Below are positions 1 to 23,874 of a stretch of 64,000 nucleotides of DNA, piece after piece. Position 1 is the stretch's first letter. Each line of letters starts with the position of its first letter. The stretch lies in IMG/VR virus record IMGVR_UViG_3300033073_001607, positions 2,419-66,418 of that record; one strand, written 5' to 3'. The notes under the pieces were generated by a model, which was given only the letters and a program-made list of their open reading frames with translations, did no database searches and had not been told where the DNA came from. Source of the DNA: a virus. Its lineage: Duplodnaviria > Caudoviricetes. The position numbers and the translations under genes are program-made.

Positions 1-813
1 CGGTGGGAGCACGTGAACCTCGACAAGCGGGCGCCACACATCCTCTGCCAGCTCGGCTCGCCACCGAAGAGGCCTCGCAAGAACGGCAAGGTGCTCCGGA
101 TCCCGCTCTTCGGGATGGCGCTGAAGACGCTGACGGCGCTCTCGTCGAAGCTCCGGAAGGAAGAGCGGACGGGGACGATCTTCCGGTCCAAGACCGGCTG
201 CTACCGGACGAAGGGGAGGGCGGTCGAGCCGGACTCGTGGAAGGCATGGCTCGCAGAGGCCGGCATCGAGCGCAGGGTGCGCTTTCACGATCTCCGCCAC
301 ACCTGCGCCACCCTGCTCCTGAACGGCGACCTGGGCCGAAAGTGGAGCTACGAGGAGGTCAAGGAACTCCTCGGCCACTCAAGCGTGAAGGTCACCGAGC
401 GCTACGCCAAGGTCCTCGGGACGCTCGCCGAGGGCGCCGCCGCAGAGATGCGGAAGTCGACGACCAGGTCGCGCAAGAAGCTCCCAAACAAGGGCGGGAA
501 TGGAGCGGCTCCCAATGCATCGGAACGCATCCAAGCGTTGAGAATCATTGAGAGGCGCGGATCGGATTCGAACCGACGTATGACGGTTTTGCAAAGCGGG
601 GACACTCCGAATGATCCCGCGTGCTTTGACGACGTCGCGCTCCTTTGCCGCTCCATCATTGAAATCGCGGCCGATGGCGGCGACTTCGCGTGGACGAAGG
701 TGATCGAACTGGTCTCCGCTGCATGGGACCAGGCCGACCGCTCACGTCCAATGAATGCGTACGACCTCGACAGCCGATGCCCAGACCATGAGCTGCGTCG
801 CGCCGGTCGGTAG
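1..813 (+). CDS. int: Tyrosine integrase, 5'-truncated by the window edge
   Basis: Frame open from base 1 (RWEHVNLD); catalytic motifs RFHDLRH, LLGH, TERY; ORF continues 72 codons past the att core. Confidence 0.95.
   Translation, partial: RWEHVNLDKRAPHILCQLGSPPKRPRKNGKVLRIPLFGMALKTLTALSSKLRKEERTGTIFRSKTGCYRTKGRAVEPDSWKAWLAEAGIERRVRFHDLRHTCATLLLNGDLGRKWSYEEVKELLGHSSVKVTERYAKVLGTLAEGAAAEMRKSTTRSRKKLPNKGGNGAAPNASERIQALRIIERRGSDSNRRMTVLQSGDTPNDPACFDDVALLCRSIIEIAADGGDFAWTKVIELVSAAWDQADRSRPMNAYDLDSRCPDHELRRAGR
552..595 (-). tRNA. 3' half of tRNA-Cys(GCA): attP homology segment, not a complete tRNA
   Basis: Minus strand reads TTTGCAAAACCGTCATACGTCGGTTCGAATCCGATCCGCGCCTC: GCA anticodon loop, T-arm GTCGG-TTCGAAT-CCGAT, acceptor strand CCGCGCC plus U73; no matching 5' half. 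Confidence 0.88.
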
Positions 814-1089
814 CGATACGTAGACCTGTTCGGCGGTCCTGAACGCGAACCCCGTCTCACCGGCGTAGTGCTTGAGCCTCTTGGTGACGCCGCTCGTGGC
901 CGGCGGGAGGATGTGAAACCCGTTGCTGCCTGTCGGGACGGCGATGGTGTTGTCGCCCGACGCGAGCGGATAGCTCACTGGACCAGCCGCCGGGCCGTTG
1001 GTGTTCGTCATGGCCTCCGGTTCGTAGGTCTGGTCGGTACCCTCGCCGGAGCTCGTGATGGTGATCTGGGTAGTCTCAGTGATGGGCAT
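742..1089 (-). CDS. Hypothetical protein, 115 aa, Thr-rich, last gene of the late/glycosylation operon
   Basis: GGAGG RBS before ATG at 1089; overlaps the end of the upstream oxidoreductase. Confidence 0.75.
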   Translation of the reverse strand: MPITETTQITITSSGEGTDQTYEPEAMTNTNGPAAGPVSYPLASGDNTIAVPTGSNGFHILPPATSGVTKRLKHYAGETGFAFRTAEQVYVSLPTGATQLMVWASAVEVVRIHWT

Positions 1090-1999
1090 CGCGGGCCTCC
1101 TGTTGTCGGTCTTGGAGTTGTTGGGCTTGGTCGAGGAAACCGACGACGTCGGCCCCAAAACGGCCGAAGCGCCAGTCGGTGCGACCGGTGCGGACGGCCT
1201 CTGCAAACGCGCGTACGGCCAACGTCAGCGGACGCTCGGGGGAGATGTCGACGGGGTGGCCATCGACTCGGAGCTTGTGCTCGGCGAGGTCGTCGTAGTG
1301 AGCGGTTCGGTCTCCGGACTGGACCCATAGGCTCCGCGTCTTGGCGGGAGCACAGTTGCTAGCTGTGATCAGCGAAGTAACCGTCGCGGACTCGCTGGAG
1401 ATGTCCACGCCAGCACCATGGCCCTCACGACGAAATTCGCGGACCCACTTCGGCACGATCCGCTCGCCGGGCGGCACCAGCCCGAGTGTCATCGCCACAT
1501 CATGCGGGCCATAGTCCCAGAGCGCGGAGTAGTCCCGATGGGGCCCAGGACCTTCGCCGACAGACAAGATGGTCTTGCCGTTCCAGCTTGAGACGACGGC
1601 GCGGAGAGCCTCGTACGCGGGCGCGAAGATGTGCTGGTGGTTGACGAGGAGGGGGACGGCCACACTCCATGCGGCTGAGACTATGTGACCCGCTTCCTCA
1701 TCGGAGAGCGCCAGCGGCTTCTCGATCATGACGGGCCGGCCATGATGCAGCAGCGAGCAGCAGAGATACTCGCGTTCGCCTGGCGGTGAAGCCATCACGA
1801 ACGCGTCGACATCGAGCGCAAGCAGCGCTCTGGTCCCGGCCTCGACGACCTGCACGCCACTCAGGTACTGCCGCGCCTCATCCGGACACGACTTCCCAAC
1901 ACCTGCAACGTGGGTGACGACGCAGTTCCCAGCCTCGAGAGCGGCGGGGATGTACCGCCACCCCCACGCGCCGCAGCCGATGAGCGCGAGGCGGATCAT
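1076..1999 (-). CDS. Gfo/Idh/MocA-family oxidoreductase (putative NDP-sugar ketoreductase)
   Basis: IRLALIGCGAWG Rossmann motif, MIEKPLA motif, WDYGPHD; ATGA overlap with upstream gene. Confidence 0.9.
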   Translation of the reverse strand: MIRLALIGCGAWGWRYIPAALEAGNCVVTHVAGVGKSCPDEARQYLSGVQVVEAGTRALLALDVDAFVMASPPGEREYLCCSLLHHGRPVMIEKPLALSDEEAGHIVSAAWSVAVPLLVNHQHIFAPAYEALRAVVSSWNGKTILSVGEGPGPHRDYSALWDYGPHDVAMTLGLVPPGERIVPKWVREFRREGHGAGVDISSESATVTSLITASNCAPAKTRSLWVQSGDRTAHYDDLAEHKLRVDGHPVDISPERPLTLAVRAFAEAVRTGRTDWRFGRFGADVVGFLDQAQQLQDRQQEARDAHH

Positions 2000-3081
2000 G
2001 CAGCGGCGACCGATGGCTCGACGTAAGCCTTTTTCGCCCACCCAAAGAACCGCCGAAGCCCGATCTCGAGCTCGACGCGCGGCGCATAGCCGACGTGAGC
2101 GCGGATCTTCGAGATGTCCGGGCACCGACGCTGCGGCTCGTCCGCGGGGTAGCTGTCGGGGTGCTCGATGGTCTCGAAGTGGACGTCGGTGCCGGTGATG
2201 CGGCCGACCGAGATCGCCAGGTCCCGCATCGAGATCTCCGGCGTAGGGTTGCCGACGTTGTACGGCTCGCCGGCCTTGCCATCGACGAGCACCTGGAGGC
2301 ATCCGCGGATCCCATCCGTGACGTAGCAGAACGTCCGCGTCTGCTCGCCGGTGCCGTAGACGTGGAGCGGCTGGCCATCGACGACGCGAGCGGCGAAGTT
2401 CGGGAGCACGCGGTAGTCGATCTTCTGCATGCCCGGACCGTAGAAGTTGAACGGCCGGATGATCGAGCTATGGACTCCGTGCTGCTCATGCTCGACGCGC
2501 ACCATCATCTCGCCGAAGCGCTTGCTCTCGTCGTAGCAGGCGCGCGGTCCGAGACAGGCCACGTGCCCCTTGTACGCCTCGTTCGTGGGGACGTGCTTCG
2601 TGTCGGGGTCGCCGTAGATCTCGCTCGAGGAGAAGAACGCGAGCCGACAGCCGGGGTTCAGTCGCGCGATGTCGAGCACGTTCCGCGTCCCGATCGTCGC
2701 GACCTGGTACGTCTCCACCGGGTACTTCCGGTAGTAGTAGGGGCTCGCGATGCCGGCGCAGTGGAGGATGAAGTCGATCTGCCGCTCCGGCGTGAACGGC
2801 TTGATGATGTCGTGCTTCACGAATGCGACGTGAGGCCGAGGCGTGCCGTCATCGCCGTACGGTCCAGCGGTGATGAGGTTGTCGAGGACGACGAGCTCGA
2901 CGGGACGCACGCCAGCGGGCTCGAGGAACCGCGCGTTGAGCCTGACGAAGACCTCGGTGAAGTACCGTCCGAGGAACCCGCGGCCACCGGTCAGCAGCAC
3001 GCGCCGTCCGCTGAAGCGCTCCCAGAACTCGCGCGGCAGTCCGTCGATGATCTCGTCGATGTCGCTCATGAGCAGATGCAT
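1996..3081 (-). CDS. uxs: UDP-glucuronate decarboxylase (UDP-xylose synthase)-like extended SDR
   Basis: TGGRGFLG, SSSEIYGDP and GPRACYDESKR (YxxxK), RPFNFYGP, QTRTFCYVTD, DEPQRRCPDI. Confidence 0.88.
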   Translation of the reverse strand: MHLLMSDIDEIIDGLPREFWERFSGRRVLLTGGRGFLGRYFTEVFVRLNARFLEPAGVRPVELVVLDNLITAGPYGDDGTPRPHVAFVKHDIIKPFTPERQIDFILHCAGIASPYYYRKYPVETYQVATIGTRNVLDIARLNPGCRLAFFSSSEIYGDPDTKHVPTNEAYKGHVACLGPRACYDESKRFGEMMVRVEHEQHGVHSSIIRPFNFYGPGMQKIDYRVLPNFAARVVDGQPLHVYGTGEQTRTFCYVTDGIRGCLQVLVDGKAGEPYNVGNPTPEISMRDLAISVGRITGTDVHFETIEHPDSYPADEPQRRCPDISKIRAHVGYAPRVELEIGLRRFFGWAKKAYVEPSVAAA

Positions 3082-3100
3082 GGTCGTCCCTTCCCTTCAG

Positions 3101-4342
3101 TCAACGCGCTGAGTCGATGATGCGAACCGTGGGCAGCGGTACGATGCACGTGCCGCCGGCCGCTCGATACCAGGTGAGTTTGTCGATGATGCTGTCGGCG
3201 AAGTTCCACGCGAGGATGACGACGTAGTCGGGCTTCGTCTCCTCGATCGCCGAGCTCGGACGCACCGGAACGTGTCCGCCGGGGAGCCATCGGCCTTGCT
3301 TGAGCGGGCTGTCGTCGACGACGTAGTCGAGGAAGCTCTCGATGCCGAACGTCCGCAGCAGCGTCGTCGCCTTGGCTGGAGCTCCGTACCCGACGATCGA
3401 CCGGCCGGCCATCTTCGCGCCGTTGAGCAGTCGGATCAGCTCGTTGCGCCGCTCCTCGATGGTGTCTGCGAAGCGGTAGAACACACCCTCAGGGTCTCGC
3501 ATGAGGCCCATCTTTCGCTCTTCGGCGATGAGGTCCGCTGCTCCGATGGAGCACGGCAGACCCGGCGTCGGCGAGACGGTCACGCGGATGGATCCGCCGT
3601 GCGTGTCCACGCGTCGTGCATCGACGAGCGACATCCCAAGGTCCCAGAAGAACCGGACGAGTGGCTCGACCGAGTGAACCGACAGATGCTCGTGGTAGAT
3701 GTTGTCCACGAGAGTCCTCTGGAGGACATCGACGAGGTAGCCGACCTCGAAGACGAACACGCCCGCCGGGTCAAGCAGGCGCTTCACGCCACGCGCGATG
3801 CCGCGGAGGTCGTCGGCATGAGCAAAGACGTTGTTGGCCACGACGAGGCGGGCCCGGCCCTTCGCTCCGAAGATGCGGGCTGCCACGTCCTCGGTGAAGA
3901 ACTCCGGCCACGACTCGATCCCGTCGGCCGATGCAGCCGCGGCGATCTTCTCGGCCGGCTCGATGCCGAGTACCCGCGCACCGCCGTCACGCATGAAGCG
4001 GAGCATCGTCCCGTCGTTGCTCCCGATCTCGACGACGAGGTCCCCGTTGCGGACATGCTTCGCCAGCATCTCGTCGGCGTACCTGCGGAAGTGCTCGACG
4101 AAGACGTGGCTCGTGCCACTGACGTAGACGTAGTCACGGAAGAGTCGGTCTGGATCGACGACCACCGGGAGCTGCACGTGGCCGCAGTCGCGACACGCCG
4201 AGAGCCACAACGGAAACTTGTCCTGCTCCTTGCCCGGCGCGGTCGGAAACTCGTTCGCGAGCGGCGTCGGCGGAAGGTCGAGCACCTTCGTCAGGAAGGT
4301 CGAGTAGCAGAGTCGGCAGTCGTTCCGGACGTAAAAGCTCAC
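3101..4342 (-). CDS. NDP-sugar C-methyltransferase (TylC3/TcaB9-type 3-C-methyltransferase family)
   Basis: N-terminal CRLC...CRDC Zn site, EIGSNDG SAM motif, NNVFAH, IYHEH, HGGSIR, YGAPAKA, ILAWNF. Confidence 0.93.
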   Translation of the reverse strand: MSFYVRNDCRLCYSTFLTKVLDLPPTPLANEFPTAPGKEQDKFPLWLSACRDCGHVQLPVVVDPDRLFRDYVYVSGTSHVFVEHFRRYADEMLAKHVRNGDLVVEIGSNDGTMLRFMRDGGARVLGIEPAEKIAAAASADGIESWPEFFTEDVAARIFGAKGRARLVVANNVFAHADDLRGIARGVKRLLDPAGVFVFEVGYLVDVLQRTLVDNIYHEHLSVHSVEPLVRFFWDLGMSLVDARRVDTHGGSIRVTVSPTPGLPCSIGAADLIAEERKMGLMRDPEGVFYRFADTIEERRNELIRLLNGAKMAGRSIVGYGAPAKATTLLRTFGIESFLDYVVDDSPLKQGRWLPGGHVPVRPSSAIEETKPDYVVILAWNFADSIIDKLTWYRAAGGTCIVPLPTVRIIDSAR

Positions 4343-4797
4343 CGGACGTACTCGCGCACGATCTCCGGCGTCAGGAACGGCACGCGGACGACGTCCTTCT
4401 CGTGCTCCTCGTGACTGCGTACGCGCTTGGCGAACGTCAGGATCAGCGAGTCGTCAGCGAAGAGCATCGCGTGCTCGATCATCGGCGGCGTGAAGAACAT
4501 CTGCCCAGGACCGAACTCCATCGGCTTGGGGATCGACATCGCGCCGACGGGTCGCTCGAAGTAGAAGACTCGACCACTTGCCACGTACGTGTAGTGGAAG
4601 TCTTCGCGGTGGTAGTGCTGCGCTCGAACGGAGCCGCGCTTGCTCGTGATGGCAGCGATGCTCTGAATCTTCTTGAGGAGAAGGTTCTGGATGATGCCAG
4701 CTTCGTTCAAGAATGGCTCAGGCAGCGGTACCAGCGGATCGCCAGGCCAGTCCTCGTTGTCGACGCTGGTGGTGTACCACTCATGCCTAGAACTCAT
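4339..4797 (-). CDS. Cupin-fold protein (putative NDP-sugar epimerase/isomerase)
   Basis: RGSVRAQHYH...HYTYVASG and PPMIEHAM cupin motifs; ATGA-coupled. Confidence 0.8.
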   Translation of the reverse strand: MSSRHEWYTTSVDNEDWPGDPLVPLPEPFLNEAGIIQNLLLKKIQSIAAITSKRGSVRAQHYHREDFHYTYVASGRVFYFERPVGAMSIPKPMEFGPGQMFFTPPMIEHAMLFADDSLILTFAKRVRSHEEHEKDVVRVPFLTPEIVREYVR

Positions 4798-5918
4798 TCC
4801 GCAGCTCCCTTCATCGCCATGGTGTGTGCACTGACGACCCGCTCGAGTCGCTCGGCCAGCGTGTTCCAGTTGCACGACTCTGCGAGCGCTCGGCACTTGT
4901 CGACGTTCTCCGCTCGCCAGTGGGCGTCGGTGAGGCCGCGGGTGACGAGGTCAACGAACGCGTCGCGCTGAAGCCCACCCTCCGTCATCGGCGCCGCCCC
5001 ACCGTAGATGTCCCCGAGCGCGTCGATGTCGGTGATGACTGGAAGGCATCCGCTCGCGCACGCCTCCAACGTCGTGACGCTGAAGCCCTCGGTGTACCGG
5101 ATGGTGTCGCACGGGTACGCGAGCACCTGCGCGTGCTCGAACTCCTGGCGCATGCGGTCGCGCGAGACCGAGCCGACGTGCTCGACGTCCCACTTGGGAC
5201 CGGCGAGCTTGCTCATGGCGTAGCGGATGTACCGCTTGCGCTGCGCGATCTCGAGCAGGTCCGGGTGGACGTTTGGGCCTGTCGCCTCGTAGTCGTCGAA
5301 GTCGGCCGCCTGGAAGTTGTAGAAGCACCGGAGCGACGCGTGCGGGACGCAGCGCTTGATCTCCGGCCACATCTCGAGCAGCCGGTGGAGCCCGCGGTCG
5401 GCGCTCGATGCCCAGATGACCCGCCCGTCGATGCGCTTGTCCTGAGCGTATTGCGTCGGGTCGCAGCCGTTCGGCTGGACCTCCCACGCGCGGACGTTCG
5501 GCGCCTGCTTCTTGAGGAACTCGAGGTGGTGCGCCGATGGGCTCGTCACCACATCGACGTGCTCCTCCCAGCCCGGCTGGCAGTAGGCAAAGTCGTTGAG
5601 CTGCTGGTTCGCCATCCGCAGCGGTCCGGCTGGCACCTGGCGCAACAGATCGGGTTCGTTCCACGCGTAGACGACGTCGCACTCGGCGACGAGCTTCGGG
5701 TTGTCGAGCTGCCGCAGTTGGATGCCGCGCCACTCATTGGCCGTCTGCGGCTGGCCGACGAGGAGCATGACCTCGTGGCCACGCCGCTGCATCGCCTGCG
5801 CGTACTCGACGCACGAGAGCTCGGAGCCGGTGAGGCCTCGTGGCGAGGTGTAGAGGTTGTCGAAGTCGAGCGGGCGCTGGCCGAGCGAGAAGCTGCCATA
5901 TAGGAATGCGATGCGCAT
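4794..5918 (-). CDS. GT-B (GT4-like) glycosyltransferase
   Basis: GLTGSELS, WASSADRGL, YTEGFSVTTLEACASG (Ex7E motif). Confidence 0.9.
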   Translation of the reverse strand: MRIAFLYGSFSLGQRPLDFDNLYTSPRGLTGSELSCVEYAQAMQRRGHEVMLLVGQPQTANEWRGIQLRQLDNPKLVAECDVVYAWNEPDLLRQVPAGPLRMANQQLNDFAYCQPGWEEHVDVVTSPSAHHLEFLKKQAPNVRAWEVQPNGCDPTQYAQDKRIDGRVIWASSADRGLHRLLEMWPEIKRCVPHASLRCFYNFQAADFDDYEATGPNVHPDLLEIAQRKRYIRYAMSKLAGPKWDVEHVGSVSRDRMRQEFEHAQVLAYPCDTIRYTEGFSVTTLEACASGCLPVITDIDALGDIYGGAAPMTEGGLQRDAFVDLVTRGLTDAHWRAENVDKCRALAESCNWNTLAERLERVVSAHTMAMKGAAE

Positions 5919-6163
5919 CAGGTGCCTTCCTTCCGCAGGACGGCCATGTTCTCGAACGTCTCGCGACACCTGCGAAGGTCTCGACCAGAGTGATCGTTGA
6001 GCGGCAGGAGGCACTGCCTGCATGTCCCGCGATCCCGCACACGCGCTGTGCCCGTAACTTCGCTGACGTGCGGCCCATCGTGCTCAGGGGCGAGTACGCA
6101 TCGCGTGCGCTCAGGCGTTTCCCAGATGCACGTGAACGCCTTTGCCTCGTTTTGGTGATTCAT
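5918..6163 (-). CDS. Small Cys/His-rich hypothetical protein, 81 aa
   Basis: TGATG overlaps at both ends; RCVLAPEHDGPH and CRQC..H motifs. Confidence 0.6.
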   Translation of the reverse strand: MNHQNEAKAFTCIWETPERTRCVLAPEHDGPHVSEVTGTARVRDRGTCRQCLLPLNDHSGRDLRRCRETFENMAVLRKEGT

Positions 6164-9100
6164 CACGCAGCCTCCCGTGTGAAGTCGGCACGAGGCTGGT
6201 ACGGGACCAGCGGAGCGACGATGACGCGCTCGAGTTCCTCGCGCATTGCCGAGACCCAGTCCTCGGCGAGGGCGTCCAGACCAAACACGTTGCGCGCGTG
6301 CGTCGCGACCCCGTACCGCGTCGTGATCCAGTCCGTGTCAGGCACCGTCAGTGCCCGGACCACTTCATCGACGAAGGTGGCCTGATACTCCGGCGAGAGC
6401 CAGTCGCCGTCGATGCGTACGCCGTACTCGCCGACAGTCTCGTTCAGCGCAGCAATGCTGCTCGTGACGATGCGGAGCCCGGCGGCCTGAGCCTCCATGG
6501 CTGTGATGCACGACGTCTCCGAGAACCACGTCGGGTATGCCCATACGCCAGCAGACAGGAACTCGGTCGCGAGGGTCTGCTGGTCGACCTTCCCACGCAT
6601 GGTGACGCCCATCGGAGCGAGGTCGGCGATCTGCTTCTCGAGGTACGCGATGCCCTTGAGCTGGTCGGTGTCGCCGCGAGCCTGGGCCATCTTCTTCCAG
6701 TTGAAGAAGCCGTAGAAGATGTCGAGCGTCGCGTCCGGCACCCGCTTCCGGATCTCCGGCCAGACCTTCAGCAGGACAGGGAGCCCGCGGTCAGGGCTCG
6801 ACGAGTAGACGACCTTCTTCGTGTTGCGCTCGACGGGGCGGTCGAACCGCGAGAGGTCGATGCCGTTGCGCGTCTGCATGATCTGCGCGCGCGGGAGGTT
6901 GTGGTGCTTCTGGAGGAAGTCGCAGTGCCACTCGGACAGGCCGAGGACTCGATCCGCCTTCAGCAGTGACGCGTGACGACCGTTGCCGGCGAAGATGTCG
7001 TGGACCCAGAGGAACCGCGTTTTCGCGGTCACCGGCACATCGAGCAGGCTCGCGTCACGCCATGCAATGAGCACATCGCAGGATCCAGCGAGCGACAGGT
7101 GAGCGCTCTGGCGGTACTCGACGCCGTCGAAGATGCCCTCGCCCCACTTCCCGGTGCTCGTGTAGACGCGGACGCGGTGCCCGAGGAGCGACAGCCGTTT
7201 CGCGAGCTCGACCACCATCGTCTCGGAGCCGCCGATGCCCTTGGTCTTGTGGACCAGCGGGTTCCAGTCCTGCCACGCGTCGCCGCACGCGAAGACGATG
7301 TCGAGCGAGCCTTCGCTGCACTTCGGCGCTTCGAGCCGCGCCTCGCAGTAGACGTTGCCCTGACCAGGAACGTCCTGGTGGCTCGCGCTCTCGACGATGT
7401 AGCTATCCTTGACCCACCAGCCATCCTCGCGGAAGTGACCGGCGACGCTCCACACCGTCGGCGCGATGAGGTGGGCGTGCGGTAGCGGCGCGTTCCAAGG
7501 CTGGTTCTCCTCGTCAGCCCATCGCCACGGGTGGGCCCACGGGATGAACTGGCCGCGCATCCACGAGCCGTGCGGGGTCACCAAGACCATCCGCCCGCCA
7601 GCCTTCAGAGCTCGACGAGCCGGCGCGATGATGTCGCGAACGTGGTCTTTGACGTGCTCGTAGGTGTCGCAGCTCGTGACGACGTCGAAGGTCTCGCCGC
7701 CGAGGTCGACCTCGCTGAACTTGCCGACGTGGAAGCGGCAGCCGGTCTTGAACTCCTCGGCCTTGCGACGCGCGAGAGCGACCGACGACTCGCAGAGGTC
7801 GACGCCCGTGACGTTGTAGCCTTGGAGGCCCCAGCGGTTGATGATGCTCCCGTCGGAACAGCCGAAGTCGAGGACCTTGTCGGTCTTCTTCAGCGTTGCG
7901 ATCGTGAGGTCGGAGCGGTCGAGGAGCTGACCGTTGAGCGGGAGCGGGAGCGGCACGCCGGTCTCCACTGTCGGATCGGCCGGCGCGTTGAACTGCTGCG
8001 TCGTCTCCGGTGCGTCCATCCACGCGGTCATCTGACGCGTTCGCGCGAGAGCTCGCTCGATGACCGGCGAATGGCGAGCGCGGTACGGTGCGTTCGCGAG
8101 GAACGTCTCAGCCGCGAGGATCTCGTCATGGAGGACGTACTCTTTCCAGAGCATGATCGTCGCCGCCTCGACCTGGGCGTCGGTCAGAACGACGGGGAGA
8201 TCCTCGATGTCGGTGGCCTCAGGAATCGCGAACGCTCGGGCGTGCGGAGACCGGCGCGCGATCGGGAAGTGCTCCGGCTTCACCCCTCGCGGATACTCCT
8301 CCGGCCGCGAGTAACGCGCCCAGCCCTCGCTCGGCCCGTCGGCGCCGCCGAACTCTGCGAGCGCGACAGCGACCGATTCCGGTGGCGCATCGGTGGCCGC
8401 GGCGAGTCTGGAGAGCGCTGCCTTCGCCTCGTCTCGCGCGATAATGCGCTCGAATACCTTCCGGTTGTAGACGAGGTTCGCGTCGTTCGGTGACTGCTTG
8501 AGCGCGGTCTCGGCATGCTCGAGCGCCCGGCGTGCGTCGCCGAGCTGCGAATAGGCCATCGTCAGATAGACATGGATGTCGAGGTCACGCTCGAGCGGGT
8601 TGACGAAGAGCATCGTCTTCGTCGGCGGCAGCGACAGGCCGACGCGCCCGAAGTGCGCGCACTTCTGCCAGTTTCGCCGCGTGTCCGTACCCGCGACCGC
8701 GAGCTGGTAGAAGCCTCGAGCGGCCGCGAAGTAGCACTCACCCCAGTCCTCGCGGACCTCGATCGCGCGGAATGACCAGACAATCCCCTCCTGGATGCGT
8801 CCGCGGCCGTAGGCGATCTCGGCGAGCTTGAGCGCCGCCATCGTCTTCTCGTGGTCCCAGCCCGAGATCCCGACGTATCGCGACAGCCACTCGACGGCCT
8901 TGTCGGGCTGGTTGTTGTTCGCGTACTCGAGACCCAGGTAGTAGAACTGTCGGGCGTCCTTCGAGCCGTCCTGCTCGACCATCTTCTGCAAGATGCGAAG
9001 GTTTCGCCCGGCCTCTTGGGGCTTCTTGCTCCGCTGGCGATGGTGCTCGACGACGACGTCATCGCACGGGACGATCGCGAGGGTGCCCGGATCGGTGGGG

Positions 9101-9633
9101 ATCATCACCTCATGGACGGGGTTGGTCCACCGCATCGCATCGACGCGCGAGAGGAGCCGTTCGCGGTAGTGCAGGCAGATGCAGCGCCCGCGCTCGTCGT
9201 AGACGTACTCGTACGGGAAGAGGTAGCACCAGTCTCGATTGCCTTGGTTCGCGTCACCGACCGCGACGAGCTTCGCGAGGTGCTCGGCACCACTGACGAC
9301 GTCGTCGGAGTCGATCCACATCACCCAGCGCTTCGTCGCGAGGGAGAAGCACTTGTTGCGGGCGTCGGAGAAGTCGTTGATCGCGCCGGTCTCAGGATCG
9401 TTGCATCCGGTGTAGACCTCGAAGACGTCAGCGTACTTCCGCGCGATGTCCGGCGTGCCGTCGGTCGAGCCCGTGTCGAGGACCACGATCTCCTCGACGT
9501 GCGGACGCACCGATTGGAGGCAGGCTTCGAGCAGCCCAGAGGCCTCCTCGTTGCGGACCAGAATGCACACCGAGATCGGCGCGCGACCCTTCGGCCATCC
9601 CTCGCCGGGGATGTCCAGAACCTTCCCGTCCAT
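6163..9633 (-). CDS. Multidomain glycosyltransferase: GT2 + TPR + SAM methyltransferase + GT-B (GT4-like), 1156 aa
   Basis: ISVCILVRNE/VLDTGSTD/FSDARN/WIDSDD (GT2); RQFYYLGLEY-type TPR helices; VLDFGCSDG/VTGVDL/DTYEHV (MTase); IGGSET/YSSSPDRGL/FSETSCITAMEAQA (GT-B); GGAGG RBS. Confidence 0.93.
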   Translation of the reverse strand: MDGKVLDIPGEGWPKGRAPISVCILVRNEEASGLLEACLQSVRPHVEEIVVLDTGSTDGTPDIARKYADVFEVYTGCNDPETGAINDFSDARNKCFSLATKRWVMWIDSDDVVSGAEHLAKLVAVGDANQGNRDWCYLFPYEYVYDERGRCICLHYRERLLSRVDAMRWTNPVHEVMIPTDPGTLAIVPCDDVVVEHHRQRSKKPQEAGRNLRILQKMVEQDGSKDARQFYYLGLEYANNNQPDKAVEWLSRYVGISGWDHEKTMAALKLAEIAYGRGRIQEGIVWSFRAIEVREDWGECYFAAARGFYQLAVAGTDTRRNWQKCAHFGRVGLSLPPTKTMLFVNPLERDLDIHVYLTMAYSQLGDARRALEHAETALKQSPNDANLVYNRKVFERIIARDEAKAALSRLAAATDAPPESVAVALAEFGGADGPSEGWARYSRPEEYPRGVKPEHFPIARRSPHARAFAIPEATDIEDLPVVLTDAQVEAATIMLWKEYVLHDEILAAETFLANAPYRARHSPVIERALARTRQMTAWMDAPETTQQFNAPADPTVETGVPLPLPLNGQLLDRSDLTIATLKKTDKVLDFGCSDGSIINRWGLQGYNVTGVDLCESSVALARRKAEEFKTGCRFHVGKFSEVDLGGETFDVVTSCDTYEHVKDHVRDIIAPARRALKAGGRMVLVTPHGSWMRGQFIPWAHPWRWADEENQPWNAPLPHAHLIAPTVWSVAGHFREDGWWVKDSYIVESASHQDVPGQGNVYCEARLEAPKCSEGSLDIVFACGDAWQDWNPLVHKTKGIGGSETMVVELAKRLSLLGHRVRVYTSTGKWGEGIFDGVEYRQSAHLSLAGSCDVLIAWRDASLLDVPVTAKTRFLWVHDIFAGNGRHASLLKADRVLGLSEWHCDFLQKHHNLPRAQIMQTRNGIDLSRFDRPVERNTKKVVYSSSPDRGLPVLLKVWPEIRKRVPDATLDIFYGFFNWKKMAQARGDTDQLKGIAYLEKQIADLAPMGVTMRGKVDQQTLATEFLSAGVWAYPTWFSETSCITAMEAQAAGLRIVTSSIAALNETVGEYGVRIDGDWLSPEYQATFVDEVVRALTVPDTDWITTRYGVATHARNVFGLDALAEDWVSAMREELERVIVAPLVPYQPRADFTREAA

Positions 9634-9828
9634 CGTCGTCCCTCCAGACGGCGCCGTCGGCTGTGCCAAGCAGTGCCAGATCCTGCGTAGCACTTGGCAC
9701 ATGACGGCACAAGTGCATGCTGCACTGATGGCGACCCCCACAAACGACGAAACGCCCGCCACCCCTCGCGAGAGGAGCAGCGGGCGCTGATGGCCGCCGG
9801 TTGGCGGCGGCTGTTCTAATGCCTGTGG

Positions 9829-10647
9829 TTACGTAGCTTTCTCGAGTGCCAGAGTGAGCGCCTTGCGCGTCAGCGGACCATAGATCCCATCAGGGACCAG
9901 GCCGCTCGCACGCTGGAACGAGACGATGGCAGCCGTGGTCTTTGGGCCAGCCCACCCGTCGATTGTGCCAGGGTCGTGGCCAAGTTGTGCCAGTGCCCGC
10001 TGTATGCCGAGCACCGTGCGGAGGTCGATCTCCTCGGTCTCGCGCTCGCCGGACTCGATCTCACCGCCGTTGAGCCGGGCCATGAGTTCCTGCCACCGGG
10101 CCCCGGTACATGCGCGGTTTACCGCGTCCTCGAGTTCCTGGACCGTGATGGCCCGGTCGCCGTTCTTGTCGAAGCCGGCGTTCGGCTCGAAAGCCCAGCC
10201 GAGGTGCTCACCTGGCTCGCCCTTCGTCTTCGGGTTCGGATCGGCGGTGAGGACGTAGCTCGGGTCGCCAGCGTACTGGACGAGCGCCGGGAGGAACGTC
10301 GCGACGTACAGACCGCCGATCGTCCAGAGGTGCCCGACGTGGGGCCGGTAGTAGGCCTCGACGTATGGGAGTTGCTGCGTCGCCGTGAGCTGCCTGAACA
10401 TCGCATGTCCGGCCCGCCAGCCGACACCCGGAAGGATGAACGGCATGAACTGGATCAGCCCGCTCGCGTTCCACCGCTTCTCTGGCGGGAGGTGCTTCGG
10501 GTTGTCGTTGTGAGCGTTCGCGCGGACGTCGCTCTCCGACTTCATGACTCGCATCATCTTCTCTGGATCGGACTGCAGCCGCTCGGCGACAGCACGCAGC
10601 GCCGGGAAGAAGTCGTCTGTGATGTCTCGCGAGTAGATCGGGATCAC
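9829..10647 (-). CDS. Endolysin: lysozyme/SLT-like catalytic domain + EF-hand-like loop + C-terminal peptidoglycan-binding domain
   Basis: KSESDVRANAHN...ASGLIQFMP; DKNGDRAITVQEL; IQRALAQLGHDPGTIDGWAGPKT...FQRASGLVPDGIYGPLT; AAGGAGG RBS with GTG start. Confidence 0.88.
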   Translation of the reverse strand: MIPIYSRDITDDFFPALRAVAERLQSDPEKMMRVMKSESDVRANAHNDNPKHLPPEKRWNASGLIQFMPFILPGVGWRAGHAMFRQLTATQQLPYVEAYYRPHVGHLWTIGGLYVATFLPALVQYAGDPSYVLTADPNPKTKGEPGEHLGWAFEPNAGFDKNGDRAITVQELEDAVNRACTGARWQELMARLNGGEIESGERETEEIDLRTVLGIQRALAQLGHDPGTIDGWAGPKTTAAIVSFQRASGLVPDGIYGPLTRKALTLALEKAT

Positions 10648-10889
10648 GGCTCCTCCTTCTTCGTCTGGAACCCTGCTGCTCGCTCCGGCGTCACCATGTG
10701 CTGGCCGCTGCAATACTCGCAGTTCTCGCACGCCGGACACGGCTGCATCGTGATTGCCTCCATGTTTGCCGCCTCTGCGGCCAGCATCCTCTGAGAAGCA
10801 CGCTCGATCTCAGCCTTTGCCGATGCGCTCAGGATCTTGTCATGATCAAGGACGAGTGTGGGTTCGCTCTGGATTCGCCGTTCGCTCAT
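10644..10889 (-). CDS. Hypothetical protein with CxxC...CxxC motif
   Basis: Coupled overlaps at both ends; CPACENCEYC. Confidence 0.7.
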   Translation of the reverse strand: MSERRIQSEPTLVLDHDKILSASAKAEIERASQRMLAAEAANMEAITMQPCPACENCEYCSGQHMVTPERAAGFQTKKEEP

Positions 10890-11257: not shown

Positions 11258-11356
11258 CTACTGGCCGATCACATAGCCGGAGACCATCAGGACGGCCGCG
11301 AGGAGGATGAGGATGGCGACGCCAAGGAGGGCAGCGCCGATCTCGTGCCCGTTCAC
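11258..11356 (-). CDS. 32-aa single-pass membrane peptide (not in the ORF track)
   Basis: MNGHEIGAALLGVAILILLAAVLMVSGYVIGQ; GTGA overlap upstream, TAG abuts the next ATG. Confidence 0.65.
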   Translation of the reverse strand: MNGHEIGAALLGVAILILLAAVLMVSGYVIGQ

Positions 11357-11670
11357 TGGATGCACCTCACGGAACCGCACGCCCTCGCCTCCGCAGCATC
11401 ACGAGCGCGAATGACACACGCATAGTGCGGATCGGTGAACTGCTCCATCTTGCGGAACGCCATCGGACATGTGACGCCCGCGCTGGTGACGCGCGACTCC
11501 GAGCAGCCGAGCTCGGCGAGGTGGAGACATGCGCCTTCCGCAGACGCCGGGTAATCCGGATCCACTGGTGGGCATGGGTTCTTCGGATCGTCGCACTTTG
11601 GGAAGATCGTCTGGTTCGGACACCCGACGAGCGCGACGACGAAGGCAACAGCGAAGGCGAAATGGCGCAT
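11353..11670 (-). CDS. Cys-rich lipoprotein (spanin candidate)
   Basis: Signal MRHFAFAVAFVVALVG-C with lipobox; Pro-rich linker; multiple Cys. Confidence 0.8.
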   Translation of the reverse strand: MRHFAFAVAFVVALVGCPNQTIFPKCDDPKNPCPPVDPDYPASAEGACLHLAELGCSESRVTSAGVTCPMAFRKMEQFTDPHYACVIRARDAAEARACGSVRCIQ

Positions 11671-11678: not shown

Positions 11679-12452
11679 CTACGCGAGCGAGACGGGAACG
11701 ACGGTCGGAACGAGGATGTCGCCTGCGAGTCGCTCGAACGCAGCGTCAGAGATGCGTGCGTGACCTCGAACACCCCACGACGAACCCCATGAGTTGGCGA
11801 CGAGCAGCCAGCCGGTGCCGAAGCCATCGACGCACTGCATGTGTGAGCCGATGCTGGCGTGGTAGAGGCCGTCGTAGATCGTGCCGTCCGCGATGTTCTG
11901 GTAGTCGACGTCGACGGGCATCGCGAACGTAGGACAGAACCCTCGCGTCAGTGCCGAGCGCACGAGCGTCGCGGCGCCTTGGCCGCTCGCGATTCGATAC
12001 CATCCAGACAGCATCTGGCCGAGGCCCGCCTGCCATACGTCGAGCGGTGGCGGGACATTCACGTTGCTCTCGTTGAGAGGCCAGCGGTCTTCGGCGACGA
12101 GGCCGAAGTCCTGCATCCCAATGATCGCCGAACGAGGCCGGGAACCGAAGTCGACCATCGCCTCGTGTGGCGCGTCAAGCAGCCGGGCACCGTCGTAGAT
12201 AGCCTTTGGGCTTGGCCGTGGGATCGGCTGCGCGGTGATCTGCGCGTGGAGGTAGATCGACGTCGCGAACGCCTGGCCCACGCAGCTCGACGAACCTCCT
12301 TGGTCTGGGATCTGCCTGAGCAGGCCGGAGTAGTCGAGCGATGTTGGCGCTCCGACTAGAGCCGCGCCGACGAGGTGGCCGATGTGCCTATTCCGGAGGT
12401 CGTCCTCGACATGCTGGTCGAGGTCGGCGACGTGACCGAGACCGCGTTTCAT
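11679..12452 (-). CDS. Papain-family (C1A) cysteine protease
   Basis: DQGGSSSCVGQA (oxyanion Gln and catalytic Cys), GSHMQ (His), ANSWGSSWG (Asn). Confidence 0.92.
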   Translation of the reverse strand: MKRGLGHVADLDQHVEDDLRNRHIGHLVGAALVGAPTSLDYSGLLRQIPDQGGSSSCVGQAFATSIYLHAQITAQPIPRPSPKAIYDGARLLDAPHEAMVDFGSRPRSAIIGMQDFGLVAEDRWPLNESNVNVPPPLDVWQAGLGQMLSGWYRIASGQGAATLVRSALTRGFCPTFAMPVDVDYQNIADGTIYDGLYHASIGSHMQCVDGFGTGWLLVANSWGSSWGVRGHARISDAAFERLAGDILVPTVVPVSLA

Positions 12453-12967
12453 TGGTCGCCGCACTTCTGCGCGCCGGCCTTGGCGCTCGCCTTCTTCGCC
12501 TCGGCGAGGACGCGGCGCATCGGCGGCAGGAGGTCATCGGTGACATCGCAGATCTTGGCGACGTCGCTTTCGGGAAGCTCCTGGTGCGCGATGATGCACG
12601 TGGTCTGCGTGATGTCGAGGATGGTCCGGAGCGTCTTCGCGTTGAACAGCGAGCACGCGGAGGTCTGGGATGCGAGCAGCACGACCAGGCCGATCGCCAT
12701 GATGCTCGGCCCTGCCGGTGGTGGCGGTGGCTCCGCCTTGCCAGTCACAACCTTCCGCACCGCCTCCACGACCTTCGGCACATCGAGACCGAGCGCACCG
12801 ATGAGTTGGAGTCCCGCCGCCACACGCGGGAAGCGAACGGCGATCTGCGCGTACTGGGTCGGCGTCCGCGGCTTGAAGAGCAGCGTGATGATCGCAGTGA
12901 CGAGTGGCCACACGAGCTCAGGGTGAGCGACGCACCAAGCGCCGCCACGCGACATGAATTCCGGCAT
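12449..12967 (-). CDS. Membrane protein (holin/spanin candidate) with an internal lipobox-like segment
   Basis: Hydrophobic segments LVWPLVTAIITLLF and MAIGLVVLLASQTSAC; GAGG RBS. Confidence 0.7.
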   Translation of the reverse strand: MPEFMSRGGAWCVAHPELVWPLVTAIITLLFKPRTPTQYAQIAVRFPRVAAGLQLIGALGLDVPKVVEAVRKVVTGKAEPPPPPAGPSIMAIGLVVLLASQTSACSLFNAKTLRTILDITQTTCIIAHQELPESDVAKICDVTDDLLPPMRRVLAEAKKASAKAGAQKCGDQ

Positions 12968-12979: not shown

Positions 12980-13552
12980 TCAGCGGTGCTCGAGAAGCTT
13001 CCAGACGATCTGCACGACGATGAGCACGGTCGACACAACGCCGGCAGCGATGCTGCTTTTGTTCTCGGTGGCGATCTTCGCGAGCGTCGTTTTCGGCCTG
13101 TTCGGCGAGACCGACGGACGGTCACTGGTCACCGACGAGTAGTCGAGTCCGAGTTCGCCGAACACGGCGCGGTTAGCTCGCTCGTTTCGCTCCGACGCCT
13201 CCGTCAGTGCGCCGACCTTCTCGTCGAGAGAGATGACCTTCTCGTCGAGCGTCCGCGTGTGCGCGATGGCTCCGCCAATCGCTGCGGCGTGCTCGATGTC
13301 GACCTCGCTCTGATGCCTGAGCACGTGACCGTCTGCATCGCGTAGCTCGCGGATGTCTCGTTCTGCGTCGGTCATGCGCGAGTTGAGGCGCTGCACTTCG
13401 ACGCGTACGGCCTCGAGCCCAGCAGCCTGTTCGTGGCCTCTACGTTCACCCTCTGCGCGGTGTGCGTCTACTTTGGCCTCGATGGCGTCGGTCTTCGCGG
13501 CTTGCCGCTCAAGTAGGCCGCGGATGATCGTCAGCTGTTCATCACCTGTCAT
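12980..13552 (-). CDS. Coiled-coil protein with C-terminal transmembrane helix (lysis-cassette membrane protein)
   Basis: Heptad-like helical body; IAAGVVSTVLIVVQIVWKLL tail. Confidence 0.75.
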   Translation of the reverse strand: MTGDEQLTIIRGLLERQAAKTDAIEAKVDAHRAEGERRGHEQAAGLEAVRVEVQRLNSRMTDAERDIRELRDADGHVLRHQSEVDIEHAAAIGGAIAHTRTLDEKVISLDEKVGALTEASERNERANRAVFGELGLDYSSVTSDRPSVSPNRPKTTLAKIATENKSSIAAGVVSTVLIVVQIVWKLLEHR

Positions 13553-16139: not shown

Positions 16140-16858
16140 GGCGAGATCGTGATCCCGGACTCGGCGCCAAGTTGGACCTCAAGCCACGCGCACTCAGCCT
16201 GCGTAAGCGCCCTGTTGTAGATGATGAAGTGGGTCGTATCGCCGTTTGCGCCGAGCGCAGCGGCAGGCGCACCGTAGTTGCCGATATTGAGCGAGCTCGA
16301 CGTCATATTCTCGAGTGTCCCGGCCGGGCCTGACACCGCGGTCTGACTGTTGGCGTAGATCTTCGAGGATGCGTTGTTGAAGATGCCGATCAACACAGAT
16401 GGCGTATTCGCCAGTCCTGTACTCACGAGGTATGTGCCGGCATCCGACGTGAGCTGCCATTTGTCACCTGAACCGCCACCGCCAGCGATGAGTGTGCCGC
16501 CACTGGGTGCGCCCATTGCGTAGTTGGCGTCGCCGCACTGACCAACGATGACCACTGTGTATGGTCCTGCCGTCATCCCGTGGCACGCTGCCGATGCGGT
16601 GATGACTTTCGTGGCGGCCGTGTTGCACTTCCACGTCGGGCGGCGGTTGTAGTTCGCGTTCGACGCGGTGTAGAGCGGCTCCTCGGTTGCGTTGATGGTC
16701 GGATCGGTGCCGACCTTGTTGTTCATCGCAGTGACGATGCTGCTTGCGGTGACGTCGGTCGCGTCGAGCCAGAGGGTGCAGCCGGAGATCGACGTGACGT
16801 CGACGCCGTTGCTGCCGTGGAACCCCACCCGGCGACCGCTGAGCCCGAAGCCAAACAT
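16136..16858 (-). CDS. Tail-associated ConA/LamG-like lectin-fold protein
   Basis: TLWLDATD start; end resembling LNIG...FIIYNRALTQAE LamG signature. Confidence 0.75.
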   Translation of the reverse strand: MFGFGLSGRRVGFHGSNGVDVTSISGCTLWLDATDVTASSIVTAMNNKVGTDPTINATEEPLYTASNANYNRRPTWKCNTAATKVITASAACHGMTAGPYTVVIVGQCGDANYAMGAPSGGTLIAGGGGSGDKWQLTSDAGTYLVSTGLANTPSVLIGIFNNASSKIYANSQTAVSGPAGTLENMTSSSLNIGNYGAPAAALGANGDTTHFIIYNRALTQAECAWLEVQLGAESGITISP

Positions 16859-17889
16859 CAGGCCCAGCTCGTCTCTTCTCGCGTGACAGTGACACCGAAG
16901 TCGAACGTGCCCGTCGCGCTGCCCTTCACGTTGACGAATCCGGTCATGCCGGAGTGTCCGATCACGATGCCCGAGCCGACAGAGAGGCCGGTGAACCCTA
17001 CGCCAGACGCTGTAACCTCGTCGTTCCACGAGGCCTCGAGCGACCCCATGGTCGCGACGGCGCCGTTTGCCCAGATGCGCGCTCGGCGCCCGTAGCTGCC
17101 GCCCGCAGCGCCACCGCTGGGGACGGCGTTCGCCGAGATGAAGACTGAGGTGATGGCCTCGTCGATGATCTTCCACGCGTAGATGGGCTGGCCGGCGGCG
17201 GAGTTCGTGGTCTTGAGGTTCTTGATCTCTGTGTATGTCCTGTGCCTGGCGTTGCCGAGTGCCGCTGATGCAACGCCCGTGTAGACGGTAGTGCCGCCGA
17301 ACACGGAATCCTTTGTCACGACGAGCGACGAGATGGCGACACTGAACGTCGACGGCGTGTAGTTCATGCCGCTCGCGCCAGCGAACGAGGCACCGCTATG
17401 GTATTGGAACTGATTCGTGGAGCCGCCTGGTGGTGTGCCTGTGCCGCTCGACGGATTCCGAATGAGGTCGTTGACCCACTTGATCCAGCCGAAGGTCGCG
17501 TCTCCCTCCGTCGTCTCGTCGGCAGCCATGACGCGACGACTGCCGCTGGTCAGTGTATAGACGCAGAAGGTCGTCTCGAGCGCGGGGTCGACGACGCGGT
17601 TGACGTCGAGGCCGTTGTTGACCCTCGAGCGGAATCGGTACGCCTTGCCAGCAGCCGGCGCAGTGAACGTTGCCGTACGAAGTGCGCTGTCGATGGTCAG
17701 CGAGGCGGTCACCGTCGCCGCGTCGCTCGTATCGTCTGTCGTCGCGCACTCGATGAGCCACGTCGAGACGTCGACCGTGCTCGCGAGGCGAATGACGATG
17801 TTGTTCGCCGGCGTGATGTCGACGCCGTTGGTCGTCGCAGCGTATGCCGCTGCGCCGTTCTTCACTTCGCACGTGGGAGATGCAGACAT
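16858..17889 (-). CDS. Putative tail fibre protein
   Basis: Beta-rich, Thr/Gly-rich; lies in the fibre block; TGATG-coupled. Confidence 0.7.
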   Translation of the reverse strand: MSASPTCEVKNGAAAYAATTNGVDITPANNIVIRLASTVDVSTWLIECATTDDTSDAATVTASLTIDSALRTATFTAPAAGKAYRFRSRVNNGLDVNRVVDPALETTFCVYTLTSGSRRVMAADETTEGDATFGWIKWVNDLIRNPSSGTGTPPGGSTNQFQYHSGASFAGASGMNYTPSTFSVAISSLVVTKDSVFGGTTVYTGVASAALGNARHRTYTEIKNLKTTNSAAGQPIYAWKIIDEAITSVFISANAVPSGGAAGGSYGRRARIWANGAVATMGSLEASWNDEVTASGVGFTGLSVGSGIVIGHSGMTGFVNVKGSATGTFDFGVTVTREETSWA

Positions 17890-17906
17890 GTCTCAGTCCT
17901 CGCCTT

Positions 17907-19280: not shown

Positions 19281-19299
19281 CGCCTCACCTGAGCCAGCG

Positions 19300-22753: not shown

Positions 22754-22757
22754 TGGT

Positions 22758-23866: not shown

Positions 23867-23874
23867 GACATCAC

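Follow-up and report, generated by a model that had tools for sequence, protein, structure and literature searches.

A cassette of glycosyltransferase (GT) and sugar-modifying genes at 1076-9633 of the window on balance probably encodes a cytoplasmic protein O-glycosylation system with its own supply of a rare sugar, which would decorate phage virion proteins in late infection. The window is the whole stretch of DNA that was analysed, 64,000 nucleotides corresponding to bases 2419-66418 of a single virus record of 66,418 bp (IMGVR_UViG_3300033073_001607). Two lines of sequence comparison favor this reading. The first gene of the cassette, gene A, is a four-domain fusion whose head resembles enzymes that glycosylate polypeptides, and relatives of this fusion recur beside capsid and fibre genes in other phages. 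For this phage, virion glycosylation is a well-founded hypothesis rather than a demonstrated function. The phage is uncultured and, judged by its tyrosine integrase and myovirus late operon, is a temperate myovirus in which the cassette lies between the last lysis gene and the integrase gene with its attachment site (int/attP). The cassette comprises seven minus-strand genes, A to G, and an eighth small gene, H, between the endolysin gene and the convergent integrase gene:

6163-9633, minus strand: gene A, 1156 aa, a fusion of GT2, tetratricopeptide repeats (TPR), helical linker, class I methyltransferase and GT4 (Pfam)
8344-9585, minus strand: GT-A domain and TPR-like repeats of A, residues ~17-430 (PDB sequence search, AlphaFold2, Foldseek)
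7501-7914, minus strand: methyltransferase domain of A, residues ~574-711 (Pfam)
6244-7266, minus strand: GT-B (GT4) domain of A, residues ~790-1130 (Pfam; EX7E motif invariant)
5918-6163, minus strand: gene B, an 81-aa Cys-containing orphan open reading frame (ORF) of uncertain coding status
4794-5918, minus strand: gene C, a 374-aa stand-alone GT4 (Pfam Glycos_transf_1, phrog_2170)
4339-4797, minus strand: gene D, a 152-aa cupin (weak Cupin_2 match, confirmed by fold)
3101-4342, minus strand: gene E, a 413-aa nucleoside diphosphate (NDP)-sugar C-methyltransferase of the TylC3/TcaB9/MtmC type
1996-3081, minus strand: gene F, a 361-aa UXS-like short-chain dehydrogenase/reductase (SDR) of the UDP-glucuronate (UDP-GlcA) decarboxylase type (Pfam Epimerase, E=2e-43)
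1076-1999, minus strand: gene G, a 307-aa Gfo/Idh/MocA NAD(P) oxidoreductase (Pfam GFO_IDH_MocA)
742-1089, minus strand: gene H, a 115-aa Thr/Ser-rich phage protein, translationally coupled to G

Reading the sequence confirmed the preliminary description of seven co-oriented genes, nearly all overlapping, past the endolysin on the late strand. The junctions are TGATG at A/B and B/C, ATGA at C/D, GTGA at D/E, and ATGA at F/G, while a 19-nt gap separates E from F. Gene H starts 11 nt before the G stop codon and overlaps the end of G by 14 nt. None of the proteins encoded by A to H contains a hydrophobic 19-mer above a Kyte-Doolittle value of 1.6 or any other membrane-like segment, and no ORF of the window has three or more hydrophobic segments. 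The absence of membrane segments, and of flippase or GT-C families in Pfam, bears out the earlier view of a soluble, cytoplasmic machinery.

All four domains previously proposed for gene A were recovered by hidden Markov model searches with Pfam. These are Glycos_transf_2 (E=4e-16, residues 21-143), TPR_1/2/14 (residues 227-387), Methyltransf_11 (E=5e-17, residues 588-683; also Methyltransf_25/23, the class I methyltransferase covering about 579-711), and Glyco_transf_4 and Glyco_trans_1_4 in the C-terminal part (about 800-1095). The protein is conserved over its full length in 20 aligned homologues (43-89% identity), in which the DxD residues D108/D110/D111, the S-adenosylmethionine (SAM) motif region, and the EX7E glutamates E1039/E1047 are invariant. 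More than 500 homologues are present in metagenomes.

The head of A was compared with the PDB as a single sequence and as a family profile. As a single sequence, its first 400 residues match GmaR (8e-15), SunS (5e-12), and the ThuS-like 7msk (7e-10), and all matches with E<0.01 are GT2 enzymes that glycosylate proteins or peptides. The family profile strengthens the same three matches (GmaR, 1.5e-27; SunS, 9e-18; ThuS-like chain 7msk, 7e-15) and reaches other GT2 enzymes far more weakly (GalT1, 1.6e-6; TarS, 3e-5; heparosan synthase, 7e-4). The best NCBIfam model is the SunS family, at 51 bits, far under its 350-bit cutoff. An AlphaFold2 model of residues 1-575 (predicted local distance difference test score, 84) shows a GT-A domain, then helical repeats at residues 210-428 and a further conserved helical region at residues 485-549. 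Foldseek places SunS/ThuS first (E~1e-14), with 300-410 aligned columns across both the GT-A and the repeat parts, and other GT2 enzymes at ~1e-6. Because GmaR and SgtA are GT plus TPR enzymes that act on proteins, the head of A belongs to the GmaR/SunS class, whose characterised members glycosylate polypeptides directly in the cytoplasm, and residues ~17-430 are a putative initiating protein O-glycosyltransferase module.

The two remaining catalytic domains would act after the head. The methyltransferase domain is probably a sugar O-methyltransferase; we infer its substrate, because its PDB matches are only generic class I methyltransferases and WbdD (3e-5). The GT4 domain of A is followed by a second GT4 enzyme, and homologues of gene C stand directly after the fusion in 78 of 81 loci. 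An intein of ~350-380 aa (Pfam intein/LAGLIDADG/Hint) interrupts nine A homologues (P0014, P0020, P0025, P0031, P0036, P0068, P0100, P0108, and P0114). All nine are inserted at the same site, residue ~1041, within the GT4 EX7E motif and just before the nearly invariant Cys1042.

The distribution of the fusion points to phages. Scanning viral and metagenome contigs with the fusion as a single sequence gave nothing useful, whereas an alignment-based scan of IMG/VR recovered relatives on 230 viral contigs; genomic contexts were taken from 80 loci of these. Only four matches were found in 185,579 bacterial and archaeal species genomes (one genome per species), a contrast that is approximate, since the viral and cellular scans used different peptide patterns. 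A single one of the four is a clear full relative, and it lies on a 10-kb contig of a metagenome-assembled genome. The fusion family is essentially phage-restricted. The complete order fusion, GT4, cupin, C-methyltransferase, SDR, and Gfo recurs in ~19 contigs by tblastn, including contigs of 190-436 kb (jumbo phages), and the GC content of the loci ranges from 29 to 68%. With the fusion on 230 viral contigs and the whole gene order on ~19, a cassette first described as unusual proves to be widespread.

Synteny links the family to structural genes, and the check across phages suggested in the preliminary description shows the fusion recurring beside capsid or collagen-like fibre genes. In 31 of the 80 loci, a gene for a collagen-like protein of up to 2,572 aa precedes the fusion on its strand, often at less than 1 kb. 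One example has a Pfam Collagen match of E=1e-153 and matches tail-fibre PHROGs. At the Y position of Gly-X-Y, these collagen-like proteins have Thr most often and Gln second. A major capsid gene lies at most 1.6 kb upstream in 18 of the 80 loci, and these capsid proteins belong to two unrelated families (phrog_1328 and phrog_1005). Taken together, 49 of the 80 loci have a collagen-like or a capsid gene upstream of the fusion. In MW202524, a complete circular podovirus genome of 42.6 kb without an annotated integrase, the GT cluster has capsid genes on one side and tail genes on the other. In this podovirus group, neither the capsid C-termini nor the small ORF between capsid and GT genes shows an obvious acceptor tail rich in Ser/Thr.

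A fibre protein with a Gly_rich_2 domain was considered as a common acceptor and rejected as such, since it occurs in only eight loci (two near-duplicate pairs among them) and in the window; it is kept as a lead only. In this phage it is encoded in the tail-fibre region at 17907-19382 on the minus strand (Pfam, 6e-7). Gly_rich_2 proteins are encoded directly upstream of the fusion in the jumbo-phage loci L003/4, L007/8, L026, and L027, and not directly upstream in L002 and L013. The protein is possibly a shared acceptor or partner. Gene H has a single homologue, which the related phage L002 carries in its tail-fibre module, and its atlas neighbours are viral hypothetical proteins.

Genes D to G have the features of a pathway that tailors a nucleotide sugar. 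The best PDB match of F is human UXS1 (E=3.5e-56, residues 25-351), and RmlB/dTDP-glucose dehydratases follow at ~1e-21. The motifs GGRGFLG, SSSEIYGDP, and YDESK can be read from its sequence, and no NCBIfam model reaches its cutoff. The AlphaFold2 model of D (score, 94) finds as natural Foldseek matches the QdtA/FdtA 3,4-ketoisomerases, the RmlC/EvaD epimerases, and the CapF cupin, each of them with an NDP-4-keto sugar as substrate. A profile match to the Cap5F cupin (4.5e-4) and the invariant residues H61, H63, H68, and H109 were also found, and D is most likely an NDP-4-keto-sugar epimerase or isomerase. Gene E has a three-part architecture consisting of an N-terminal Zn-binding domain (Methyltransf_13, PF08421, 1e-16), a class I SAM domain (PF13489, 2e-11), and a C-terminal Methyltransf_14 domain (PF08484, 4e-46). 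It aligns end to end with PDB 4rv9 (E=3.6e-84, residues 8-409) and also matches TcaB9 (2e-71). All solved relatives of E are 3-C-methyltransferases (MtmC, KijD1, and TcaB9; E=4e-84 to 1e-70). E most likely methylates the carbon beside a keto group, the carbon position and the pentose substrate being predictions. G matches PDB 3c1a (3e-26), the sugar 3-ketoreductase KijD10 (4.5e-4), and the NCBIfam model for UDP-GlcNAc 3-dehydrogenase (5e-11, far under cutoff). The characterised proteins among its distant relatives all use sugars or nucleotide sugars as substrates, and G is probably an NDP-keto-sugar reductase.

The pathway had been called self-contained and a full nucleotide-sugar pathway, which is overstated. 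Neither a nucleotidyltransferase nor a UDP-glucose dehydrogenase was seen; the pathway lacks an activation step, and its entry enzyme needs UDP-GlcA from the host. The cassette is therefore better described as a tailoring pathway dependent on host UDP-GlcA. In most cassettes the SDR is instead an RmlB-type dTDP-glucose 4,6-dehydratase (in L003, TIGR01181 at E=8e-105 and 350 bits against a cutoff of 365). The UXS-like SDR is found in this phage and in L002, L013, L019, L021, and L025, at 51-75% identity to F. Oxidation at C-4 is common to RmlB and UXS, and the 4-keto sugars that they can supply, a 6-deoxyhexose or a pentose, share one ring configuration. Either generator of a 4-keto sugar fits the cassette because a TylC3-type C-methyltransferase needs an adjacent keto group. 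Their interchange supports a predicted order from UDP-GlcA to UDP-4-keto-pentose and on through D, E, and G. No paper that treats UDP-4-keto-pentose together with a C-methyltransferase turned up in the literature search. For the UXS version in this phage, the sugar would be a C-methyl pentose, a proposal made with considerable doubt; no such sugar was found described in the searchable literature.

Other cassettes vary in content. Those without a TylC3-type enzyme have a B12-binding radical-SAM enzyme and FkbM-type methyltransferases in its place (L023:16621-18132 and L012:19159-20652, family f13; L009:16347-17036, family f11), which suggests alternative routes to methylated sugars. In some jumbo cassettes a response-regulator receiver gene lies between the C-methyltransferase and dehydratase genes (L003:16129-17046 and L005:19310-19729). 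In L003 the same gene also encodes a dual-specificity phosphatase domain, joined to the receiver; a gene of signalling type was not expected among those of a sugar pathway. Twelve jumbo-phage loci conserve, immediately after the sugar cassette, a gene for a patatin-like phospholipase (family f9, Pfam E=2.5e-29; L003:19562-20434), behind which come small conserved ORFs and HNH endonucleases. Homing-endonuclease-type genes (GIY-YIG with NUMOD3, DUF4379 treble-clef with DUF559, and HNH) stand between cassette genes in several phages, with insertions at these positions:

L003:18846-19577, homing-endonuclease-type insertion
L007:13238-14581, homing-endonuclease-type insertion
L003:20842-21162, homing-endonuclease-type insertion

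Under the favored reading of virion-protein glycosylation, F would oxidatively decarboxylate host UDP-glucuronate to UDP-4-keto-pentose, and D would epimerise or isomerise the sugar beside its keto group. E would then use SAM to methylate the carbon adjoining the keto group, and G, with NAD(P)H, would reduce this group to give a UDP-C-methyl-branched pentose. The GT2-TPR head of A would bind a folded or nascent acceptor protein and add the first sugar to Ser/Thr. The GT4 domain of A and gene C would extend the glycan, with the tailored sugar among those used, and the methyltransferase domain of A would O-methylate it. We infer the order of these steps, the identity of the sugar, the acceptor, and the timing of expression. 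On a broader scale, it is possible, and offered tentatively, that phages of many host phyla share a mobile module consisting of a GmaR/SunS-like four-domain enzyme and an exchangeable tailoring cassette, which together would produce virion glycans containing C-methyl sugars.

Several observations weigh against this reading. F may release UDP-4-keto-pentose, in the manner of ArnA, or finished UDP-xylose, in the manner of UXS; the RmlB-type generator of 4-keto sugars at this position in most sister cassettes gives an indirect hint. D may be an epimerase or a ketoisomerase, and G a 4- or a 3-keto reductase. No collagen-like ORF is present in the whole genome of this phage, and no Ser/Thr-rich tail was noticed in its capsid and tube protein sequences. 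The fusion has no match in five more relatives (baseplate identity, 45-56%; 31-59-kb records with a completeness of 52-90%), an absence that is provisional, only one of the five records being at least 90% complete. In this lineage the cassette looks like a ~9-kb accessory module, and its absence from related myoviruses implies that it is dispensable for virion assembly. Finally, a terminator-like hairpin parts the cassette from the late operon, and attP/int adjoin it. Of the earlier proposal that a cytoplasmic protein-glycosylation machine coats the virion, the solubility, the GmaR/SunS-class head, and the structural synteny in other phages hold up; the acceptor in this phage is conjectural.

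The position of the cassette also bears on lysogenic conversion, in which a moron expressed from the prophage would use its GmaR-like enzyme to glycosylate host flagellin, pilin, or another surface protein and so block superinfecting phages. An attP-proximal spot is a classic site of lysogenic-conversion genes (morons). Here, the cassette lies between the last late gene and attP/int, past the terminator-like hairpin and with a structured leader of its own. The gap from the endolysin stop to the gene A start is 195 nt and contains two elements:

9751-9788, minus strand: 17-bp GC-rich hairpin with a U-rich tail, UUUCGUCGUUUGU, resembling an intrinsic terminator, between the endolysin gene and A
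9652-9710, minus strand: second hairpin, formed by the inverted repeat GTGCCAAG...CTTGGCAC, immediately before the gene A ribosome-binding site (RNA fold)

The RNA fold of 9634-9835 has a z-score of -4.9, and none of the shuffled sequences folds equally well. A consensus terminator scan did not call the hairpin at 9751-9788; the hairpin at 9652-9710 is a possible regulatory element. That the phage is temperate, that its cassette is not matched in related myoviruses, and that its closest characterised homologue, GmaR, acts on flagellin are further points in favor of conversion. Nevertheless, elsewhere the family lies inside structural operons, including those of a complete genome without an annotated integrase and of jumbo phages. 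In the related myovirus L002 (baseplate 68% identical), the cassette comes after a papain-like protease gene with one 128-aa ORF between, directly following this ORF, and is succeeded by homologues of early-region genes; no integrase homologue was found in the fetched 24.6-kb locus. A scan for sigma-70-like promoters found none, a negative tempered by the unknown host. Conversion is considered fairly unlikely.

Modification of a host polysaccharide is a less probable alternative, and one that we regard as improbable. Here, the soluble GTs and the methyltransferase would build or cap a glycan (O-antigen, capsule, or EPS) on a lipid carrier for export by the host, as in the ABC-transporter type of pathway represented by WbdA/WbdD or WsaE, and so change receptors and keep out other phages. 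Multi-domain enzymes combining GT and methyltransferase activities exist in lipid-linked pathways, and the methyltransferase domain of A weakly matches the O-antigen chain terminator WbdD (3e-5). In the passages available from one study, sugar-modifying clusters of SDR, cupin, and GT genes in large phages are read in this way (PMC7824862). However, protein and peptide GTs are 10-20 orders of magnitude nearer to the initiating GT2 than any GT2 of polysaccharide synthesis is. The cassette showed neither a phosphoglycosyltransferase nor a transporter, a ligase, or a membrane protein of any kind. Bacterial genomes, in which such loci should share the family, hardly contain it, and in other phages it adjoins capsid and fibre genes. 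Conversion of the GtrABC type is excluded, as the preliminary description had argued, by the lack of GtrA, GtrB, or GtrC families in Pfam and of any multi-segment membrane ORF.

Gene B would matter most if the cassette made a glycocin-like or small-molecule product, with the SunS-like enzyme placing a branched sugar on peptide B or on a small molecule. SunS and ThuS are peptide S-glycosyltransferases, SunS is prophage-derived, the Cys-containing 81-aa B lies between two GT genes, and C-methyl sugars are typical of antibiotics. Against this, B is absent from every other cassette and has a weak coding signal, and the family is conserved without it. Scans of the cluster and its neighbours with Pfam and PHROG revealed no SunT-type transporter/peptidase, thiol-disulfide oxidoreductase, or immunity gene. 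Such a product is very improbable. B has no Pfam, PHROG, or NCBIfam match and no homologue in any related cassette, and its atlas scores are all below 0.85, with no relatives. Its GC content at third codon positions is 0.72, against 0.82-0.90 for the other genes. The label of a Zn-type protein given to it earlier has no basis in any family match or cassette homologue. Both a zinc protein and a glycocin precursor were rejected on the weak coding signal and the lack of relatives, and an origin of B from the homing endonucleases inserted in other cassettes was rejected for lack of similarity.

Glycosylation of phage DNA as protection from restriction is hardly credible: phage GTs often modify DNA (PMC12619734), but no hydroxymethylase, TET, or own DNA polymerase was found among the cluster genes and the ten largest early ORFs (the latter encode only RusA, a DnaB-like helicase, and DNA methyltransferases of the ordinary kind), protein acceptors are indicated by the TPR module and by the homology to GmaR/SunS, and the family is syntenic with structural rather than replication genes.

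The remainder of the genome is that of a myovirus, with a minus-strand late operon extending from position ~50 kb down to 742. The structural genes were assigned from Pfam and PHROG scans:

39084-40514, minus strand: large terminase
36428-37801, minus strand: portal
35381-36364, minus strand: protease
33803-35095, minus strand: major capsid protein
29677-31206, minus strand: tail sheath
20754-26078, minus strand: baseplate
13566-19382, minus strand: tail fibres, the structural genes nearest to the cassette in the window
9829-10740, minus strand: endolysin (PG_binding_1, SLT), the last gene of the lysis block, upstream of gene A
ending at 813, plus strand: tyrosine integrase, converging on the late operon

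Other candidate virion proteins are the tube protein (29151-29528), a TIG-domain protein (31595-32587), and a further fibre protein (16858-17889). The 3' ends of gene H and the integrase ORF overlap by ~72 nt (742-813). No isolated phage matched the region in a megablast search, and searches with the terminase and capsid proteins found distant relatives only (25-34% identity). The GC content of the cassette (65.6%) is close to that of the remaining genome (64.9%).

Some neighbouring genes have features of their own. Just upstream of the large terminase gene, 40889-42160 (minus strand) encodes a protein that joins a ParB-like nuclease domain and a DNA methyltransferase (phrog_498, E=2e-129). 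In the tail-fibre region, an 857-aa fibre protein (13566-16139, minus strand) contains an IPT/TIG domain, a propeller region of the BNR/sortilin type, and a domain resembling E1_FCCH. Within this gene, on the other strand, ARAGORN predicts a tRNA-Thr of 89 nt (15467-15555), probably a false positive. The lysis block includes proteins with one or two hydrophobic segments (12449-12967 and 12980-13552, both minus strand) and a small o-spanin-like protein with a lipoprotein-type signal ending L-V-G-C (11353-11670, minus strand). This lipobox protein suggests a diderm host.

To our knowledge, virion glycosylation has been demonstrated experimentally in only a few mycobacteriophages. In these phages it alters antibody recognition, which is relevant to phage therapy. 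The cassette suggests a second, far more widespread and elaborate system of phage virion glycosylation, in which a protein GT is fused to extension and methylation domains and the phage encodes the supply of a branched sugar. The phages that share it would range in GC from 29 to 68% and in size from 40-kb podoviruses to 430-kb jumbo phages. Confirmation would provide testable enzymes for cytoplasmic glycoengineering, namely a soluble initiating O-GT, extension GTs, and C-methylation of pentoses or 6-deoxyhexoses. Thr-rich collagen-like phage fibres would find an explanation as well, and the usual annotation of phage sugar clusters as modifiers of host lipopolysaccharide would merit reconsideration. 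If true, autonomous virion glycosylation with rare sugars, mainly known from giant eukaryotic viruses, would be common in bacteriophages.

Among known systems, SgtA of Clostridioides difficile is a soluble GT-A plus TPR enzyme that adds O-GlcNAc to Thr of the GPT repeats in BclA3, the product of the adjacent gene (PMC7157674). The phage fusion likewise follows Thr-rich collagen-like genes in 31 of 80 loci. SgtA differs in being a cellular enzyme of 358 aa with one catalytic domain and no dedicated sugar pathway, and its likeness to the fusion is one of description. GmaR of Listeria monocytogenes, a GT plus TPR enzyme that O-GlcNAcylates flagellin (PMC9638930; PDB 22ao), is the best GT2 sequence match and shares the order of GT then TPR and the cytoplasmic action on a protein. 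Unlike the fusion, GmaR continues into an anti-repressor domain rather than a methyltransferase and GT4, and it uses flagellin as acceptor and plain UDP-GlcNAc as donor. SunS and ThuS (PDB 7msn and 7msk) are the best structural matches to the GT-A and helical-repeat region of A. However, they S-glycosylate small Cys peptides and are accompanied by a transporter and disulfide enzymes, none of which the present cassette has.

A phage parallel is provided by Che8 and other cluster F mycobacteriophages. As described in papers citing Freeman et al. (2023), these temperate phages glycosylate capsid and tail-tube proteins with their own GTs, whose genes lie away from the structural genes (PMC11256854; PMC12619734) and, in F1 phages that glycosylate their capsids, near the genome end (PMC11256854), a point in favor of a virion target despite the attP-proximal place of the present cassette. 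In the same descriptions, Che8-type phages have GTs only, with no nucleotide-sugar pathway, fusion, or TPR. Their hosts are actinobacterial, in contrast to the diderm host suggested here by the lipobox protein of the lysis cassette. Chloroviruses and Megavirinae also combine multi-domain GT-GT-methyltransferase proteins with viral rare-sugar enzymes that act in the cytoplasm on capsid or fibril glycans (PMC9614988; PMC10117803), but they are eukaryotic viruses with different folds and families, and the likeness is one of analogy.

In chlorovirus PBCV-1, A064R has two rhamnosyltransferase domains and a methyltransferase. The actinomycete antibiotic pathways of MtmC, TcaB9, and KijD1 (PDB 4rv9, 3ndi, and 5t64) share with the cassette a 4-keto NDP-sugar, SAM-dependent C-methylation, and ketoreduction. 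They start from dTDP-glucose via RmlB and usually involve 2-deoxygenation or amination, whereas the present cassette has a UXS-like pentose entry, no 2,3-dehydratase or aminotransferase, and a Gfo/Idh/MocA rather than an SDR reductase. Iyer et al. (2021) interpret clusters of sugar and GT genes in jumbo phages and cyanophages, in the passages available, as modifying the host surface against superinfection (PMC7824862). These clusters share NAD-dependent epimerase/dehydratases, cupin sugar isomerases, and several GT families with the cassette; the four-domain fusion, the C-methyltransferase, and the adjacency to capsid or collagen genes do not appear in those passages. No paper describing this cassette was found in the literature. 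Three features set it apart: a single protein, widely conserved, joins the GT2-TPR head with a methyltransferase and a GT4; the branched-sugar pathway has four enzymes, and RmlB and UXS can replace each other at its entry; and the cassette occurs at the int-proximal end of a temperate myovirus without collagen genes.

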